Below, in pieces: positions 528-53,025 of a stretch of DNA of 64,000 nt (positions are counted from its first letter, which is position 1; each line of letters opens with the position of its first letter). Both the position numbers and the translations under genes were made by a program. The stretch lies in the IMG/VR virus record IMGVR_UViG_3300023177_000002, one strand, 5' to 3'. The stretch comes from a virus. The notes beneath the pieces were generated by a model. It had not been told where the DNA came from, did not search any database, and worked only from the letters and a program-made list of their open reading frames with translations.

Positions 528-1166
528 CTATAGATTGTAAGTAACAATAACACTGCTTTCTTCGGCAGTTGGATTAACATAATATGTAACAACAAGTTTT
601 TTATATTGATGGCTCATTCCAACATTTATAACATGCAATCCTTTTTCAGTATTATAGAAAAAGGCTTTTCCTATGGCGGCACCTATAAAGAAGGATAATT
701 GGCCGGATTCGGCAGGTAATCGGATAATTCGGTTGATTTGTAAGTATTTGCTGTGTGTAGTGTCGTTGTAAACATTACCTGTCGCCATAAATTCAAACCC
801 CGCATAATTGTACCTTCCTCCGATTTCAATAAAATGTGCGCCCAGATTTTTATTGGCAAAGTTCCCATATTTATTGGCGGGATACGGATAGTAATAGTCG
901 CAAAGCCAAATTGACCCGTCATTGACCAAACTCCAAGCGAATGTAACAGTATTTTCGGAGAAGCGTTCAGATATACTTGCATCTGCGGTAATATTGGCGA
1001 TAAAGTTTTTGGTAGAATATTCAAGATAGCCTCCAATTGTAGGTGTTGCACACAGCTGTATACCTTTTATTACATACTGTGATTTGAAACAAGCACCAGA
1101 ATTAAATTGCGCTTGTCCGATAGATATAAATAACAATAAAAATAAAAAAATAAATATGCGTTTCAT
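528..1166 (-). CDS. secreted beta-rich protein with N-terminal signal peptide, function unknown
   Basis: MKRIFIFLFLLLFISIGQAQ signal-like N-terminus, alternating aromatic/polar pattern. Confidence 0.45.
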   Translation of the reverse strand: MKRIFIFLFLLLFISIGQAQFNSGACFKSQYVIKGIQLCATPTIGGYLEYSTKNFIANITADASISERFSENTVTFAWSLVNDGSIWLCDYYYPYPANKYGNFANKNLGAHFIEIGGRYNYAGFEFMATGNVYNDTTHSKYLQINRIIRLPAESGQLSFFIGAAIGKAFFYNTEKGLHVINVGMSHQYKKLVVTYYVNPTAEESSVIVTYNL

Positions 1167-5679: not shown

Positions 5680-6347
5680 TAACGTGCCTTTCTCTTTTGC
5701 GTTGAAGTTGTTTGTGTTGCTAGATATGTTTTTATTTTTGTTTCTTGCTCTCTAATTGCAGTACGTACCGAATCGAGCGTAGCAGTAAATACATCTTTTT
5801 GCGCAGACAATTGTTGCTCCTCTTGTGCGGCACCAACCAATAAATCATTAGCTTGTACTTTTAGCTTCTCGATTTGATCATTTAATTCTGCAATGGTATC
5901 ATCGATCTTTGCCGCTTGATGTCTTTTTGTATCAATACCTTTTTGCGATTCGGACAATTCAGCATCAAATTGCTCCGATGCCGCATCTACAGCACTGAAT
6001 TTTGCGGTAATAGCATTTAATAAAATTTCTACACTTGCTTTTCCTTGTTTTTGCAAAGCAATAAAAGCAGATTTAAATCTAGCAGACTCATCGGCAATAG
6101 CTTCCGATAATGACTCGACAAGACCATAAAAATCCGACAGGACTGATGGCGTTGCTTTATCAACATCTGCAACTATTTGTTGCAGAATTTCTTCATCAAC
6201 TGTCTGACGTCCAGGCTTAATACTTTTTTGTGCGGGCGTTGCCATTTTTTCGGGCGTGGCCAGCTGCTCATCAGCAGAAGGGGTTTCTTGCCCAGAATCT
6301 GGAGCAAAATTCCAGAACGGGGATAGCGCCTTCTTTAGTACATTCAT
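5679..6347 (-). CDS. coiled-coil protein, unknown function
   Basis: ORF with AGGAGA RBS upstream of ATG at 6347; coiled-coil composition. Confidence 0.4.
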   Translation of the reverse strand: MNVLKKALSPFWNFAPDSGQETPSADEQLATPEKMATPAQKSIKPGRQTVDEEILQQIVADVDKATPSVLSDFYGLVESLSEAIADESARFKSAFIALQKQGKASVEILLNAITAKFSAVDAASEQFDAELSESQKGIDTKRHQAAKIDDTIAELNDQIEKLKVQANDLLVGAAQEEQQLSAQKDVFTATLDSVRTAIREQETKIKTYLATQTTSTQKRKAR

Positions 6348-6512
6348 TATATCTCCTGATATAAAGTTTTTTGTAATCGTGGCGGAGCCATATATAATGC
6401 AAAAGTCCTATCAAATGGCTCCGGTGCTCATTGAGCGGAATTGTTTATGACAGGACTGATAATCTCCCCATATTTATTAGGCGTCGAGAGAATAATACGC
6501 CGTCCGGATAAA

Positions 6513-6846
6513 AATTTATCCCTCTGGCAGGACTCAAACCTGCAGCATTACTTTTAGTCTACTGACAGTCAGTTCCGTTTGTAAGCGTTCGACAGGGAGT
6601 AGTAAAGATCCCATTCTAATTTTCAATTGAATATTCAGCCGCTACGCAACTAAACGTTCGTCGCATGACAATTGGTTTAATCGCTTCATCCTAGTTATTC
6701 TTCCAATACACTTGCTCTGAACTTGACCATAAAGAACAGTCTATACTGGTAACTCGATGCTGTCACCTACTAATTCAATCTAGTGACTTAGTAATGTATA
6801 TTAATACGTAACAAATATACATCTCTTTTCATTTCACCACAGAGGA
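6513..6846 (-). ncRNA. candidate tmRNA(ssrA)-like RNA inside structured noncoding region
   Basis: 3' end GCAGGTTTGAGTCCTGC CAGAGGG A resembles tmRNA T-arm plus acceptor; 5' TCCTCTG at 6840-6846 can pair with the acceptor 3' strand; internal frame GAC GAA CGT TTA GTT GCG TAG (..DERLVA stop) resembles ssrA tag region; lacks G3:U70. Confidence 0.3.
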
Positions 6847-6851
6847 ATAAG

Positions 6852-6925
6852 TGTCTGCGACGGGGAACGACCCCGTGTAACTAGTTTTAGAGACTAGTGC
6901 TTATTTCGTTCTCGGCCACGCAGAC
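6852..6925 (-). ncRNA. tRNA-like element with anticodon-like loop CUCUAAA (CUA)
   Basis: GTCTGCG...TCGCAGAC perfect 7-bp acceptor-like closure, 6-bp ACTAGT stem with 7-nt loop CTCTAAA, CGGGG/CCCCG arm with short loop; D-arm poor. Confidence 0.3.
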
Positions 6926-36514: not shown

Positions 36515-36587
36515 TACCGCTAACGAGATTCGAACTCGTGTATTAAGATTGAGAATCTTATATCCTGGGCCACTAGATGATAGCGGC
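36515..36587 (-). tRNA. tRNA-Glu (anticodon CTC)
   Basis: acceptor GCCGCTA/TAGCGGT, stem TAAGA/TCTTA, loop TTCTCAA, T-arm ACGAGTTCGAATCTCGT. Confidence 0.7.
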
Positions 36588-36745
36588 GGTTTAGTTCACG
36601 GACCTTGTCAGTACGCCCCATAGATGGGGTCTGGATGGTGAACATAAATACCACCCACAGGGCATGACAGATGGGTTATCAAGTCCTACAATAAATGTGC
36701 GATATTTTTGTTCGAAGAATTGCATGTATTAATATACGTAATTTT

Positions 36746-37027
36746 TTATTTAGTGTCAAGCAAAATCGACATCAAACCATATAAACACATTAACTCCTGA
36801 TTCGGCCCATGGTATCCTCCGGATACATGATATGATGGAACAGGCGAAAGTGTTGTACGATTATTTTTAACGATTGCAGTAAATGGTTCAATATATATAA
36901 TCCCGCCCATGTTTTGGTAACAAGTAATTACTTCATGATCAAGAAGTTTATGTTTGTCAAGAAAGGTATAAAACATTTTTCTCAACTCTTCATCGGGAAT
37001 CAACGTAATAGCTTTTTGTATAGTCAT
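36746..37027 (-). CDS. hypothetical protein
   Basis: ORF. Confidence 0.35.
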   Translation of the reverse strand: MTIQKAITLIPDEELRKMFYTFLDKHKLLDHEVITCYQNMGGIIYIEPFTAIVKNNRTTLSPVPSYHVSGGYHGPNQELMCLYGLMSILLDTK

Positions 37028-49515: not shown

Positions 49516-49959
49516 TTAAATTAATTTTCCGGTCATATGATCCAACTCATGTTGTATAATAATTGCCGGCATACCGACAAATTTATCAACGTGTGGAGTA
49601 CCTTCCTCATCCATATATGATACGGTAACGATTTCTCGACGAATACATCTTTTCTTATACCCGGGTTTTGACATACATCCTTCTTCAAACGAGAAGTATT
49701 TACCCGATCTTTTTGCCGTTGCATTTATAAATACTTTCCAATTATCAGAAATATTTACTACAAATACATGCGGTATGGGCTCATTTTCTTTTGTCCAGAT
49801 TTGATTACTTGCCAGCCCCATACATATTTCATAGTTCTTAGCGGTGTCTATTAAATCTACTGCCAACAAGGCCGCTGGGCCCACTTCACCACGAGTAGCT
49901 GGTGTTCGTAATATCCGCAATTGTGCCTCGTTATCTGCTTTATTTATCGACACAACCAT
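49516..49959 (-). CDS. def: peptide deformylase
   Basis: GLASNQIW (GxGxAAxQ), EGCMS (EGCLS), QHELDHMTG (QHExDH) motifs. Confidence 0.8.
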   Translation of the reverse strand: MVVSINKADNEAQLRILRTPATRGEVGPAALLAVDLIDTAKNYEICMGLASNQIWTKENEPIPHVFVVNISDNWKVFINATAKRSGKYFSFEEGCMSKPGYKKRCIRREIVTVSYMDEEGTPHVDKFVGMPAIIIQHELDHMTGKLI

Positions 49960-50188
49960 ATTTTAACCTTTCATGATATTTACATAAATAATCATACGCA
50001 TTTTCAGCGTCCAATAACGTGTTATATGTTTCTTTTATAGTAGTAATTTTTATTCCAAGAAAGTAAAGAATATATATTAATAAACAGTGTGATTCTTCTG
50101 GTTTCAATATTATTTTGCATGTTGTAAAATTGCGTCTGTACTTGGTCATAATCATAGTTGTGTAAATACTCTCTTTCTTGCATACCAT
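49940..50188 (-). CDS. hypothetical small protein
   Basis: ORF. Confidence 0.3.
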   Translation of the reverse strand: MVCKKESIYTTMIMTKYRRNFTTCKIILKPEESHCLLIYILYFLGIKITTIKETYNTLLDAENAYDYLCKYHERLKYGCVDK

Positions 50189-50718
50189 TGGAATTTTAGT
50201 AAATCTATATTTACATCCGCAAAATCAATAATGACTGGATTCTTTTTTATCTTATTTGAAACTCGCATTAGTCTGCCGGCGCTTTGTTTTAACCACACTT
50301 TACTTCGTGTTGGTGCGCATATAAATAAGATCTCAAGCTCCTTCAGATCGATGCCTTTATGAAACAATTGCCAGGTAGTAACAACAATACGCTTTTTACC
50401 GCTTTCAAGTTGCTGCATAATAGCGGCGCGATCTTTTTTCTTTACACTGGATAATAAAACTACGGAGTCCGGTAGTAACGCACCCAGTCTCTGAGCATGT
50501 TCTTGTCTATGACACAATAGAACACATTGTTGTGTTTTATATTTATTTACGGTGTCAACTATTAATTTATTTCTTATGTCATTAGTACCCATATCCGTTA
50601 TCATGATACCATATTCTGACGTATCAAATAATGGATACGTATATGAAGTTTTTATATACTCATATACAGGTTTTACAATTCTATCTGCAACAGCGGCATC
50701 TGGAACCTGATGTACCAA
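50152..50718 (-). CDS. helicase C-terminal domain segment (split gene, second part)
   Basis: motif VI QSAGRLMR, helicase C-domain pattern; N-terminal partner at 51827-52474. Confidence 0.6.
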   Translation of the reverse strand: MVHQVPDAAVADRIVKPVYEYIKTSYTYPLFDTSEYGIMITDMGTNDIRNKLIVDTVNKYKTQQCVLLCHRQEHAQRLGALLPDSVVLLSSVKKKDRAAIMQQLESGKKRIVVTTWQLFHKGIDLKELEILFICAPTRSKVWLKQSAGRLMRVSNKIKKNPVIIDFADVNIDLLKFQWYARKRVFTQL

Positions 50719-50959
50719 TGGGCCGGTTAACCAGAATATTACTTTAGTAAGACCATCAGCTCGTTCTGGTGTGGCTGATAATCCATATTTATATTTTGCT
50801 GGTATCTTTGAAATAACTTCAGCGTATGTTTTTGCTGGTACGATGTGTCATTTTGTTATCATTGAGGTTGTTATCTCAATTTCTACAAATTACTTTGTAG
50901 CTCGGCATATATTTTCATCCTATAAGGATGTCAAGGACTCTTGGGAATATTATATTTAT

Positions 50960-51820
50960 TCAATTCCTATGCTCTACACTGCGCAGGGCCTGTTTGCTAT
51001 CCTTGCGTTTAGCACGGTATTGCCCATCACGGGTTTTTACCGTTTTTCCTTGATTTACACCTTTGATCTTACGATCAAGTGCGGCACAAGCTTTTTCAAA
51101 TAATGCTTTTTTTCTCTTTAGAAAAATTGTACTGTCTTTATATAAATAATTAAATATTCTAACAACTTCAATTAAATTAGTCGTCTCTAATCTAAATATT
51201 GAGCGGTGTTTTGTTATCTTAGTATAAAGTTTTAATCTTTTATGGCACCAAGAAACAACATCGATATTGCCAGATATGTCAAAACAGTATCTAAGATGAG
51301 GAACTTTTCTTATATATATCGAACCATCACCATCAAATATACCCCTAATAAAATGATGTGTGTATTTTATAGGAATATTTTTGGGTTTTCCACCTCGTAG
51401 AGATTTTTGTGGCAAGCACCCTTTAGCTATGACGTCTAATCTCATTTGTTTATTATTTATATAATACACCGCTAAAGGTTGTTTTGATATTTGAATCTTT
51501 GCCTTGGTTCCTAAAATATCTTTAATCCGTCGCAACATGTACAGATCATTCGGATGTAGTGCTAAGGTCATGCCTGGGCGATTTTTTCTAACACAACCGT
51601 CGGCGAATATTAATCCAAGTATATACGCTTTTTCTTCTGTATCTATATTTTTAAAATAACGACTATTCAAACCAGGGTGTCTGCATTCTTCGTAGTCCCT
51701 AGTTAATTTTTCTTCATGTATAACATTGTATACTAATTCTTTTGAAGCAATGTGTAGTTTTTGCATTATTTGATAAGCCGACAACCCACTTTTATATAAT
51801 ATCTTAATTTTATTTTTCAT
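50960..51820 (-). CDS. LAGLIDADG homing endonuclease (double motif) inserted within helicase gene
   Basis: LGLIFADGCV and IRGIFDGDGSI motifs; own ATG 6 nt after stop of upstream helicase segment. Confidence 0.75.
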   Translation of the reverse strand: MKNKIKILYKSGLSAYQIMQKLHIASKELVYNVIHEEKLTRDYEECRHPGLNSRYFKNIDTEEKAYILGLIFADGCVRKNRPGMTLALHPNDLYMLRRIKDILGTKAKIQISKQPLAVYYINNKQMRLDVIAKGCLPQKSLRGGKPKNIPIKYTHHFIRGIFDGDGSIYIRKVPHLRYCFDISGNIDVVSWCHKRLKLYTKITKHRSIFRLETTNLIEVVRIFNYLYKDSTIFLKRKKALFEKACAALDRKIKGVNQGKTVKTRDGQYRAKRKDSKQALRSVEHRN

Positions 51821-51826
51821 AAGTTA

Positions 51827-52474
51827 TTATACGTAATATGTGGACCTTGTCAATACCTCATCGCATATTATCATTCCGAATTTATTTAATTCTGATTGAT
51901 CAATTTTTTTTACGCTTTGTAATAGCCCTACAGTTATTGGTTTTATTTTTCTTTCGCCCGCGCCGATTTTTCCTATATTCTTTACTGAGGTGAACTGTTT
52001 TAATCGCGCAATAAATTGATGCGCAAGTTCTATAGTATCTACCAGTATCAATGTAGGTTGTTTTAGTTTTGCAAGTAACGCACAGGCTATAACGGTTTTT
52101 CCTGAAGCCGTGATAGAGCATAAAACCCCGTTTGTTGTATTACTTAATACATCTACTGCAGTTTTTTGATAATCTCGTAACTCCCCGGTAAATTCTATTT
52201 GTATAGGAGTTTTGCTATAATAGCGATTATCATCAATCTGTAAATTAGGATTTATTATCTTCAATGACGAAAGGAAACCAACGGGGGCGGTTATTGTATT
52301 GTTTGCTTCTGTGTAAAATCGAAGCTTTGGTTCGATCCCCCACAGACTTTTGTTCATACTCATAGCCGTTACCCAGGTTGGATTTTCGGTCACAAGGCTC
52401 GCTTTTATCTGGTGTGCCTCGTCTTCTGTGTAATCGGTTATGGTTAATTCACCACTTATATTTACATTCATCAA
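51827..52474 (-). CDS. helicase N-terminal ATPase segment (split gene, first part)
   Basis: Walker A ITASGKT, motif II ICDEV; ORF stops ~10 aa after motif II. Confidence 0.6.
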   Translation of the reverse strand: MMNVNISGELTITDYTEDEAHQIKASLVTENPTWVTAMSMNKSLWGIEPKLRFYTEANNTITAPVGFLSSLKIINPNLQIDDNRYYSKTPIQIEFTGELRDYQKTAVDVLSNTTNGVLCSITASGKTVIACALLAKLKQPTLILVDTIELAHQFIARLKQFTSVKNIGKIGAGERKIKPITVGLLQSVKKIDQSELNKFGMIICDEVLTRSTYYV

Positions 52475-52536
52475 TTCTTTTCATTAATTATAATAATAAA
52501 ACACCTGAAACTCAATAATCTTATACCATAATAGTC

Positions 52537-52565
52537 TTGCATTTGATTATAAAAAACAGTATAAT
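52537..52565 (+). promoter_or_regulatory. sigma70-like promoter (TTGCAT -17 nt- TATAAT) with AGGAGA RBS for tail module
   Basis: TTGCAT at 52537-52542, TATAAT at 52560-52565, AGGAGA 52575-52580, ATG 52585. Confidence 0.5.
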
Positions 52566-52584
52566 CATATCATAAGGAGAATAC

Positions 52585-53025
52585 ATGACACAATTAACAG
52601 AAAAACAACAAAAGTGGTTAGAAGATCTTGTTATAAACGGTCAAACAACTACTACCGAAGAAATAATTCGCGGTTTAGCCAAGATAACTATCGCCTCATT
52701 AGTAGGTGGAACACAGCTGGCAATTGAACAAGCTATACCGGCTGAAGGTGCTTCGGTGTATGTTTTGCATTCTTTTGCGATTCAAACGTTGGCACAGGTA
52801 TTAAAAGCTTATGAAACAAAGGATAAAAAGACCGTCTTCGACAGTACAGCAGTAGCATTGGAGTTTGTAAAAAACCGCCCTACTGCAGTTATCGATGAAA
52901 TGATACAAGTGCAAACTAAATTCGAAAAAGAATTGAAGCAATTAATTACCCCGGAGACATTACAGGAAAATTTTACTACGACCCCAGGAACAGGCGCAGA
53001 CTCCAACTCTACATCAAAGGTATAA
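52585..53025 (+). CDS. putative tail assembly chaperone (short form)
   Basis: 146-aa ORF immediately upstream of tape-measure-like gene, carries slippery heptamer near its 3' end. Confidence 0.45.
   Translation: MTQLTEKQQKWLEDLVINGQTTTTEEIIRGLAKITIASLVGGTQLAIEQAIPAEGASVYVLHSFAIQTLAQVLKAYETKDKKTVFDSTAVALEFVKNRPTAVIDEMIQVQTKFEKELKQLITPETLQENFTTTPGTGADSNSTSKV
52968..52974 (+). other. candidate -1 programmed frameshift slippery heptamer A AAT TTT; -1 frame open to 53324 giving extended chaperone
   Basis: AAATTTT in X XXY YYZ register of the 52585 ORF; -1 frame has no stop for ~117 codons and no in-frame ATG. Confidence 0.5.

Follow-up and report, generated by a model that had tools for sequence, protein, structure and literature searches.

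The window analysed here, a 64,000-nucleotide stretch of IMG/VR virus record IMGVR_UViG_3300023177_000002 from a virus that looks like a large tRNA-rich phage, contains a helicase gene whose DEVH box is very probably split by a mobile IA-like group I intron that carries a LAGLIDADG homing endonuclease gene (HEG). The intervening sequence, judged by its exon junction and its homology to other phage introns, is a group I intron. It is a selfish element of a well-known kind; the gene and the phage are new. Its main features are as follows.

52471-51855, minus strand: helicase exon 1, start ATG 52471, 3' end ...GAT GAG GT
51854-50849, minus strand: group I intron, 1006 nt, placed from the exon junction and ribozyme homology
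51826..51853, minus strand: sigma-70-type promoter match TTGACA-16 nt-TATAAT, intron +2..+29
50960..51820, minus strand: predicted LAGLIDADG homing endonuclease ORF, 286 aa, double motif
50862..51056, minus strand: ribozyme core, located by nhmmer, covariance model (CM) and covariation
50848-50152, minus strand: helicase exon 2, begins A CAC ATC GTA (H-I-V), stop TGA 50154-50152

An interrupted helicase gene

Exon 1 carries the Walker A motif (TASGKT) and the D-E-V of motif II, and homologs aligned to its start begin MNV.... The TTG at 52474 is an in-frame alternative start. Exon 2 holds motif III, the Helicase_C domain and motif VI (QSAGRLMR). The original prediction had recognized both halves, as an N-terminal segment with Walker A and ICDEV that stops soon after and a C-terminal segment with QSAGRLMR, and both were recovered as minus-strand ORFs, the first (52474/52471..51827) closing with TAA TAA 8 codons past DEV and the second ending at 50152. 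It had also read ITDMGT as motif III-like; the true motif III is the SAT within GLSATPER. That the two segments are parts of one protein, and not of unrelated ones, is borne out by the joined product, a 437-aa SF2 helicase that matches 262 homologs, the best of which are uninterrupted 438-443-aa proteins aligned at 70-50% identity (top value 70%) over 100% coverage.

Comparison with uninterrupted homologs, proposed earlier as a way of defining the exon junctions, does define them: the alignment is gapless over DEV/HIVPA (here and below a slash marks the insertion point), and the locus is colinear at the nucleotide level with three syntenic intron-less orthologous loci. The insertion splits the Val codon of the DEVH box (motif II) after its second base, and exon ligation as GAT GAG GT/A CAC ATC restores DEVH, the predicted ligated junction being ...GCGATGAGGT joined to ACACATCGTACC. 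Because A flanks both junctions, their position is ambiguous by 1 nt; this was settled by requiring a U at the exon end and a G at the intron end, with U51855 closing exon 1 and the omega G (G50849) closing the intron.

The spliced product matches the Pfam families ResIII (92.3 bits) and Helicase_C (36.4), both above their cutoffs, and DEAD (47.1), and TASGKT, DEVH, SAT and QSAGRLMR are conserved between it and its homologs. It also shows ~25% identity to phage helicases annotated as 'RNA-DNA + DNA-DNA helicase'. From these matches the host gene is predicted to encode an SF2 DExH helicase of the ResIII type that is UvsW-like, a term that denotes likeness and is set apart from a claim of orthology to T4 UvsW. 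A peptide-pattern scan of IMG/VR for relatives of the spliced helicase confirmed nothing.

Public gene calls list two separate helicase ORFs (214 aa and 188 aa) and drop 43 conserved residues. The exon/intron boundaries first proposed were wrong: exon 2 starts at 50848, and of the 240 nt then regarded as non-coding (50959-50719), 111 nt (50959-50849) are indeed intron while 130 nt (50848-50719) belong to exon 2 and encode HIVPAKTYAEVISKIPAKYKYGLSATPERADGLTKVIFWLTGP, including motif III. The separately called ORFs, together with a promoter-like site belonging to the HEG, would suit the second layout offered originally, in which a free-standing HEG splits the gene and, without RNA splicing, two helicase polypeptides assemble in a T4-like manner. 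We consider this very unlikely. A complete group I ribozyme flanks the HEG, the upstream half would carry 8 foreign residues straight after DEV, and the exon-2 frame, which has an in-frame stop at the 3' splice site, offers no ATG, GTG or TTG from 50848 until TTG 50718, so that a separate C-terminal half would lose the 43 conserved residues, SAT among them.

Homology of the intron

An nhmmer profile built from 19 related phage introns, with the window left out, gave a single match in the 64 kb (51054-50851, E = 7.3e-36), and a covariance model built from 18 related phage introns only gave one match (135.2 bits, E = 5.8e-35) over 157 of its 157 positions. The part matched by both is the last ~205 nt of the intron. 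Every one of the 71 invariant columns of a 20-sequence family alignment is kept in the window. Megablast of the locus against GenBank phages returned only a 36-nt match, and a 44-nt window-specific P3-P5 stretch had no exact match in IMG/VR.

The Rfam group I scan suggested as a check came back empty: RF00028 had no match on the whole window at the gathering threshold nor, even at E <= 10, on 50000-52600, and Rfam searches of the whole window and of the locus at E <= 10 returned tRNAs and noise (rox2, Afu_182, bxd_5) and no intron family. Group I membership of the window follows instead from its homology to relatives that do match RF00028. Among relatives with the same 30-nt P7.1 element these are L067 (50.8 bits), L017 (50.7 bits) and L031 (46.8 bits), the first two only just above the RF00028 cutoff of 50 bits, and the closest ORF-less relative, L042, matches at 44.7 bits (E = 3.5e-8); RF00028 detects 4 of the 30 related loci scanned.

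Group II introns have lately been reported in phages (PMC12350094), and this precedent favours considering a group II intron or another intron class. The group I core refutes that reading: the locus fits the group I model over its full length, gives no Rfam group II match at E <= 10 and contains no reverse-transcriptase ORF, its sole ORF being the LAGLIDADG one. We regard a different intron class as next to impossible.

Ribozyme structure

The elements of the putative group I ribozyme were placed as follows.

51853..51857, minus strand: P1 5' strand GGU/AU; 5' splice site after U51855, from comparison with ORF-less relatives
51083..51090, minus strand: internal guide sequence UGU GUGCC; GUGCC pairs with GGUAU to form P1
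51063..51078, minus strand: P2 hairpin UUGAUC-GUAA-GAUCAA, recovered in the minimum-free-energy fold of the mini-intron
51053-47/50937-31, minus strand: P3
51043-38/51019-14, minus strand: P4
51033-31/51025-23, minus strand: P5
51013-11/50980-78, minus strand: P6
51007-01/50988-82, minus strand: P6a
50974-68/50909-04, minus strand: P7
50967-63/50948-44, minus strand: P7.1
50938..50967, minus strand: P7.1 hairpin and J7.1/3, a 30-mer, GGAATTGAATAAATATAATATTCCCAAGAG
50930-26/50920-16, minus strand: P8
50900-50883, minus strand: P9
50879-50862, minus strand: P9.1
50849..50860, minus strand: conserved 3' terminus GAUAACAAAAUG, last base omega G, 50849

Covariation was evaluated over P3, P4, P6, P6a, P7, P7.1, P8 and P9.1, with P3 drawn as a pseudoknot with P7. 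Across the 20 sequences 98.6% of cells are paired, compared with 33-43% when the partners are slid, compensatory changes occur in 30 of 43 pairs, and the observed values were reached by none of 500 shuffles. The canonical P3-P9 order, including the P3/P7 pseudoknot, is supported by this covariation. The intron is of the IA-like type, with the P7.1 hairpin between P7 and P3'. The 30-mer GGAATTGAATAAATATAATATTCCCAAGAG recurs unchanged in at least 118 viral contigs of IMG/VR and in the crAss-like phage cr6_1.

At the 5' splice site the terminal U of exon 1 lies opposite a G of the guide sequence in a U.G wobble. Within UUGUGCC (51089-51083), the three middle bases, UGU, directly precede GCC and can form P10 with the ACA at the start of exon 2; P1 and P10 are mutually exclusive, since the UGU bases serve both. 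The two pairings are short (5 + 3 bp). Across the family, exon 2 position +2 and the guide show covariation (A-U vs C-G). Core homology, covariation, the relatives that match RF00028, the U.G pair with the terminal G, and the restored DEVH box together strongly support the other layout of the original prediction, a group I intron carrying a HEG.

Two candidate elements were ruled out. ACCUCA (50866-50861), tried as the exon-1 guide, belongs to the conserved P9.1 hairpin as its 3' strand, and UUGACAAGGUC at the intron 5' end is not the 5' strand of P3. That strand is UCAAGGA (51053-51047), which is perfectly paired and in line with the family alignment. The TTGACA near the intron 5' end is the -35 box.

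The same structure bears on decay. P1 is short, and its 5 bp have to close a very large loop of 765 nt; the P6a of the window contains a single A.C mismatch and is out of register with the family alignment by 1 nt; and the window gives no direct Rfam match. These are traits that might be expected of a decayed group I intron that does not splice, with the helicase a pseudogene or working as fragments. However, the family-invariant columns are all retained, the core helices are all intact, with standard pairs in P3, P4, P6, P7, P7.1, P8 and P9.1, both exons are open with every helicase motif kept and 70% identity to intron-less orthologs, and the HEG is identical on 16 contigs, so we judge decay to be unlikely.

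The endonuclease gene and its promoter match

As predicted originally, the LAGLIDADG ORF has its own ATG (51820), 6 nt past the first TAA of the exon-1 frame, and it ends at 50960. Within its 286 aa are two motifs, YILGLIFADGCV (aa 65-76) and FIRGIFDGDGSI (aa 157-168), with conserved acidic residues on a single chain. The product matches PF14528 LAGLIDADG_3 (33.3 bits vs a cutoff of 22.5), PHROG 4645 'endonuclease' (1.3e-47) and the cr6_1 intron endonuclease (29% identity, E = 2e-19), and in a PDB sequence search its second motif aligns to I-MsoI in a weak match (E = 0.002). It is predicted to be a monomeric double-motif LAGLIDADG homing endonuclease. The P1 loop houses the body of the HEG, the final ~42 codons run through P1'-P2-P3-P4-P5-P6-P7, and the P7.1 loop opens with the 3 nt of the HEG stop TGA. 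Because the ORF overlaps the ribozyme (by 128 nt), HEG translation might disturb folding. The relatives L011 and L038 show one and the same intron with a HEG in the P1 loop and without it. Natural alleles of the insertion site are those of L128, L130 and L131, the intron-less L130 allele reading GATGAAGTACATATTGTGCC. A synthetic intron-less site would read ATATGCGATGAGGTACACATCGTACCAG.

The HEG shares the frame of exon 1, parted from it by two TAA, but not that of exon 2; the earlier description of the endonuclease as not in-frame was accurate with regard to exon 2 and wrong with regard to exon 1. LAGLIDADG domains are common in inteins, and the shared frame would accommodate an endonuclease excised at the protein level. 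The reading frames nevertheless refute an intein, since two TAA stand between exon 1 and the HEG ORF and the HEG ends in TGA, followed by 111 nt and a frame change before exon 2. There is, moreover, no Hint/intein Pfam match, and the C-extein would begin with His, not with Cys, Ser or Thr. An intein had been called unlikely from the outset, and we would give it a vanishingly small chance, not quite for the reason then stated but for the stops and the frame change.

The sigma-70-type match is the sole 12/12 promoter site in the 64 kb, where ~0.2 are expected. Its -10 box overlaps the TAA TAA of the exon-1 frame, and the HEG ATG starts 6 nt past that box.

Relation to known introns

The phage T4 td, nrdB and sunY and the Staphylococcus phage Twort group IA2 introns are IA-type self-splicing introns in conserved catalytic regions of protein-coding phage genes, the kind of region interrupted here, and they share with the present intron extra helices between P7 and P3' and stop codons soon after the 5' splice site. 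T4 and Twort introns have two extra helices (P7.1, P7.2), whereas the window intron shows one. The HEGs of T4, which are expressed from intron-internal promoters as is proposed here for the window HEG, are of the GIY-YIG or HNH type and lie in P6a or P9.1, whereas that of the window is a LAGLIDADG gene in the P1 loop.

The crAss-like phage cr6_1 has an intron in a DnaB-like helicase gene (NC_055894.1, ~53.6-54.6 kb; locus L001) that belongs to the same ribozyme family: 36 nt are identical, and the core can be aligned throughout. The two introns carry homologous LAGLIDADG endonuclease genes, each located in the P1 loop directly behind the 5' splice site and extending into the core, and each insertion follows GGT in an NTPase motif. 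In cr6_1, unlike in the window, a replicative helicase gene is the host and the insertion falls in Walker A (GSG/KS) instead of DEVH; the HEG stops before P7 and is without the 50-aa N-terminal extension of the window HEG; and the intron has no sigma-70 consensus promoter and an extra hairpin in the P9 region. An intron at the same site as that of the window, with the same flanks (GATGAGGT before the insertion and ACACATCGT after it), occurs in IMGVR_UViG_3300009431_000015 (L043), in a homologous helicase that is only distantly related to the window helicase. It shares the guide UGUGCC, the P2 position and the core, but is only 443 nt long, has no LAGLIDADG gene in its P1 loop and contains in its P5 region a ~190-nt insertion with a Cys-rich mini-ORF. 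The terminase large-subunit (terL) introns of Staphylococcus/Mammaliicoccus Sextaecvirus phages and of the crAss-like phages cr131_1 and cr7_1 are of the same family (70-75% core nucleotide identity), with compensatory changes in P7.1, P3 and P7. Their host gene is terL, they are ORF-less or have the ORF placed elsewhere, and they come from isolates that infect Gram-positive hosts or from crAss-like phages.

In huge gut 'Jug' phages, many essential genes are split by group I introns with cores of ~206 nt and with HNH, GIY-YIG or LAGLIDADG endonucleases nearby, and splicing was confirmed by metatranscriptomes in 37 of 76 (PMC12880540). The likeness between these introns and that of the window is one of description, and the word 'helicase' has 0 occurrences in PMC12880540.

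Proposed mechanism

The primary transcript would fold into a P1-P10 ribozyme, in which exogenous guanosine would attack after U51855, paired to the G of the guide UGUGCC. The freed 3'-OH of exon 1 would then attack after the terminal G50849, and the exons would be ligated to restore the 437-aa helicase. On unspliced RNA the TAA TAA would halt exon-1 ribosomes ahead of the HEG ORF, and the endonuclease is probably expressed separately, from an almost leaderless mRNA started at the promoter at intron +2..+29. The endonuclease would cut intron-less alleles around GATGAGGT/ACACATCGT, and the intron would be copied into them.

Significance

The case leaves the current understanding of group I introns unchanged; it is an ordinary kind in a new host gene. 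With it, the DEVH box of a UvsW-like helicase would join the catalytic motifs colonized by homing introns, and the locus shows in compact form how a HEG can overlap its ribozyme and carry a consensus promoter. Recognizing the intron turns two called ORFs into one 437-aa enzyme.

We tentatively raise a broader reading, which we hold to be possible but doubtful: that the intron is a member of a distinct, cross-host phage lineage of IA-like group I introns that is largely missed by the Rfam model. The marks of such a lineage would be the invariant 30-nt P7.1 element, a 3' end of GAUAACA...UG, a guide ...GCC targeting GGU/A in NTPase catalytic motifs (Walker A or DExH), and a P1-loop LAGLIDADG gene whose reading frame continues through the ribozyme core; the sigma-70 promoter and leaderless mRNA would, in the window, uncouple the endonuclease from host-gene expression. 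As this case shows, an entire lineage of phage introns can escape the Rfam group I model; its members are easy to find with a short invariant element, the P7.1 30-mer, or with a covariance model specific to the lineage. If this broader reading is true, many of the helicase, terminase and polymerase genes that look 'split' in phage metagenomes would be mis-annotated from the same cause.

Helicase gene and exon junction

The original prediction that a double-motif LAGLIDADG endonuclease interrupts a helicase gene is borne out, as both helicase halves and a 286-aa ORF are present on the minus strand of the window and the joined exons match uninterrupted homologs. The parts are:

TTG 52474 or ATG 52471 to first stop 51829-51827, minus strand: helicase N-terminal ORF, with Walker A (TASGKT) and then ...FGMIICDEV
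ATG 51820 to TGA 50962-50960, minus strand: LAGLIDADG ORF (HEG), 286 aa, with two motifs, YILGLIFADGCV and FIRGIFDGDGSI
Open just after TGA 50851-50849, to stop 50154-50152, minus strand: helicase C-terminal frame, HIVPAKTYAEVISKIPAKYKYGLSATPER... through QSAGRLMR

After DEV, the N-terminal ORF adds eight codons (LTRSTYYV) and ends at TAA TAA. Joining ...GAT GAG GT (to 51855) to A CAC ATC GTA... (from 50848) gives a product of 437 aa (438 aa with the TTG start) that carries the Pfam domains ResIII, DEAD and Helicase_C and has 262 homologs at E <= 1e-10 in a search of 5.8 billion proteins, the best of them uninterrupted, 438–443 aa long and 70–50% identical over 100% coverage. Comparison with uninterrupted homologs had been proposed as a way to define the junction, and it places the exon ends at 51855 and 50848: a 16-sequence alignment has no gap at ...DEV|HIVPA..., with D205 and E206 invariant and H208 nearly invariant. 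The spliced sequence is also colinear at the nucleotide level with three intron-less orthologous loci (L128, L130 and L131). Their gene neighbourhood is that of the window gene: upstream, on the opposite strand, come a ~920-aa protein and a 147-aa ORF, and downstream follow a peptide deformylase and a PolyA_pol/HD protein of 355 aa. This leaves an intervening sequence of 1006 nt (51854-50849), with a 1-base uncertainty in the junction position because an A adjoins both junctions. Directly downstream of the window helicase lies a 147-aa peptide deformylase homolog (49516-49959, minus strand), and the order helicase, deformylase, PolyA_pol/HD (CCA-adding-like) protein is kept in the three intron-less loci.

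Stop codons and a change of frame exclude an intein, which had already been judged unlikely. The assignment of some 241 nt after the HEG to non-coding sequence needs correction: it followed from setting the C-terminal start at TTG 50718, as public gene callers do (188 aa). Of these nucleotides, 130 upstream of TTG 50718 belong to the coding sequence and include SAT, the true motif III, a role that had been given to 'ITDMGT'. Two public contigs with the identical HEG protein and the gene layout of the window (L125 and L126) are annotated in the same way: separate 214-aa and 188-aa genes are called for the helicase, with the HEG between them and the first 43 exon-2 codons unannotated.

A group I intron and its family

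The Rfam search suggested earlier gave no intron match in the window itself; it is the relatives of the intron that match the group I model RF00028. Among GenBank phages, the window intron has a 36-nt perfect match to the crAss-like phage cr6_1, where the matching stretch directly follows a gene that is annotated 'endonuclease; mobile intron protein' and interrupts a DnaB-like helicase. At least 118 IMG/VR contigs contain the central 30-mer, GGAATTGAATAAATATAATATTCCCAAGAG (50967-50938), and a more sensitive search recovered the same ~200-nt element from crAss-like and Staphylococcus phages, there within terminase genes, and from Yersinia, Oenococcus and Leptolyngbya phages. Several ORF-less relatives match RF00028 over the full model length, namely L067 (50.8 bits, E = 6e-10), L017 (50.7 bits), L031 (46.8 bits) and L042 (44.7 bits, E = 3.5e-8), which of the family resembles the window most closely. 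In these alignments, the 30-mer is an extra hairpin that separates the 5' strand of P7 from the 3' strand of P3. This is the P7.1 position, typical of subgroup IA. The 172-kb viral contig L042 carries two group I introns ~170 nt apart (93-371 and 537-762, minus strand), one the close relative of the window intron and the other a different RF00028 match (67.7 bits).

Models built from relatives recover the window intron in turn, which strongly supports the group I reading. An nhmmer profile from 19 relatives, with the window left out of the build, has a single match in 64 kb (51054-50851, E = 7.3e-36, 212/217 positions), and a covariance model from 18 relatives spanning P3 to P7' likewise has one (51056-50900, 135.2 bits, E = 5.8e-35, 157/157 positions), in which the only two non-standard pairs fall in P6a. 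In a 20-sequence alignment, P3 (drawn as a pseudoknot with P7), P4, P6, P6a, P7, P7.1, P8 and P9.1 have standard pairs in 98.6% of cells, versus 33–43% when the 3' partners are slid by 1–3 columns; both sides change in 30 of the 43 pairs, and none of 500 shuffles reaches the observed pairing values. The window pairs correctly in every counted helix except P6a, where a one-base register shift is an alignment artefact. The minimum-free-energy fold of the intron without the ORF body recovers P2, P3, P4, P5, P7.1, P8, P9 and P9.1.

Gut crAss-like, Staphylococcus and other phages of very different sources and annotated hosts share an invariant P7.1 hairpin with a 14-nt loop, UGAAUAAAUAUAAU (window 50938-50967; loci L001-L119); more distant relatives show covariation in the stem (GGAAU/AUUCC, GGAGA/UCUCC, CGAGU/ACUCG, GAAAG/CUUUC). 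Two frames have stop codons within the loop, and the window HEG ends there. Possible explanations for this invariance are a tertiary contact or a translation barrier protecting P3'-P8-P7'.

A gene split by a free-standing HEG into two polypeptides, which had been left as an option, is rejected, as the ribozyme is complete and the first start codon that exon 2 offers is at 50718. The Rfam result and the ORF type speak against a group II intron, which is likewise rejected. A decayed group I intron that no longer splices is unlikely because every invariant position, every helix and both exons are intact.

Splice sites and guide sequence

P1 is unambiguous in ORF-less relatives, such as L009 (GGU|AAUA-AAGAA-UAUUGCC), and the corresponding guide in the window is UGUGCC. 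Its GUGCC (51087-51083) pairs with exon GGU and intron AU, so that the 5' splice site, which follows U51855, has a U.G wobble; the UGU directly 5' of GCC (middle of UUGUGCC, 51089-51083) can form P10 with ACA, the first exon-2 bases; the last intron base is G50849. In the IMG/VR contig IMGVR_UViG_3300009431_000015 (L043), a homologous helicase is interrupted at precisely this position (GATGAGGT|...|ACACATCGT) by a 443-nt intron of the family that has the same guide, whereas members inserted at GGT|AAA or GGT|AAG of Walker A motifs have AUUGCC or UUUGCC, a difference that fits P10 covariation. The P1 helix is short, and the case made here is weaker than that for the core.

Members with readable junctions sit after GGT and before A in NTPase catalytic motifs, either G-x-G|K-S/T (Walker A; L001 in cr6_1, L038/L011, L009, L024) or DEV|H (window, L043), and all their guides end in GCC. 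The L043 intron (reverse-complement coordinates 6118-6560) is without a LAGLIDADG gene and has a ~190-nt insertion in the P5 region with an open frame for a Cys-rich peptide (..CKRCKQK...CQRCQ..), possibly a remnant or else a small endonuclease of another type.

The homing endonuclease gene and its predicted expression

The HEG matches Pfam LAGLIDADG_3 (33.3 bits, cutoff 22.5) and PHROG 4645 'endonuclease' (1.3e-47). It starts 34 nt past the 5' splice site, fills the P1 loop (51852-51088, 765 nt) and continues through the guide sequence, P2, P3, P4-P6 and P7 to a stop formed by the first three bases of the P7.1 loop, so that the ribozyme sequence fixes its final ~42 codons. Alignment with the cr6_1 intron endonuclease (29% identity, E = 2e-19) shows that the two proteins are homologous, and it stops exactly at the Cys codon overlapping the guide. 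In the relatives L011 and L038, identical intron flanks occur with and without the HEG in the P1 loop.

As predicted, the HEG ATG (51820) lies 6 nt downstream of the N-terminal segment's stop (first TAA, 51829-51827). The only perfect TTGACA-N16-TATAAT in the window, where ~0.2 are expected in 64 kb on both strands, is at 51853-51826 (intron +2 to +29); its -10 box overlaps TAA TAA, and the ATG begins 6 nt after it. Judging from this arrangement, the HEG would be transcribed from its own predicted promoter as a (nearly) leaderless mRNA, and ribosomes arriving from exon 1 on unspliced RNA would be halted before the ORF. No terminator-like site was found on the minus strand within the intron.

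An 11/12 sigma-70-type match (TTGACA-17-TATATT, 36731-36759, minus strand) just upstream of the first tRNA-array gene, which ends at 36587, could be the array's promoter and suggests that consensus sigma-70 promoters are in use in this phage. ARAGORN finds 35 tRNA genes (431-36587, all minus strand) covering most amino acids; the one at 6851-6925 has anticodon CTA and thus would read TAG, and may point to amber suppression or TAG recoding in part of the genome.

The host genome is probably that of a very large phage, as seven of the 16 public contigs encoding the identical HEG protein are 0.2–1 Mb long. No close relative was found among GenBank phages, and pattern scans of IMG/VR with peptide words of the helicase and with an exact 44-nt stretch gave no match for the window phage.

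Significance

It is a classical finding that group I introns with homing endonucleases occupy conserved catalytic motifs of phage genes (T4 td, nrdB, sunY; Twort), and such introns are abundant in crAss-like phages. They also abound in huge gut phages (PMC12880540). The window intron belongs to this kind. A UvsW-like helicase is new as its host gene, and the DEVH box is new as its site; the intron is further marked by a P1-loop LAGLIDADG gene that overlaps the ribozyme and has a consensus promoter match. The main value lies in the corrected annotation and in the demonstration that this intron lineage escapes the curated Rfam model.
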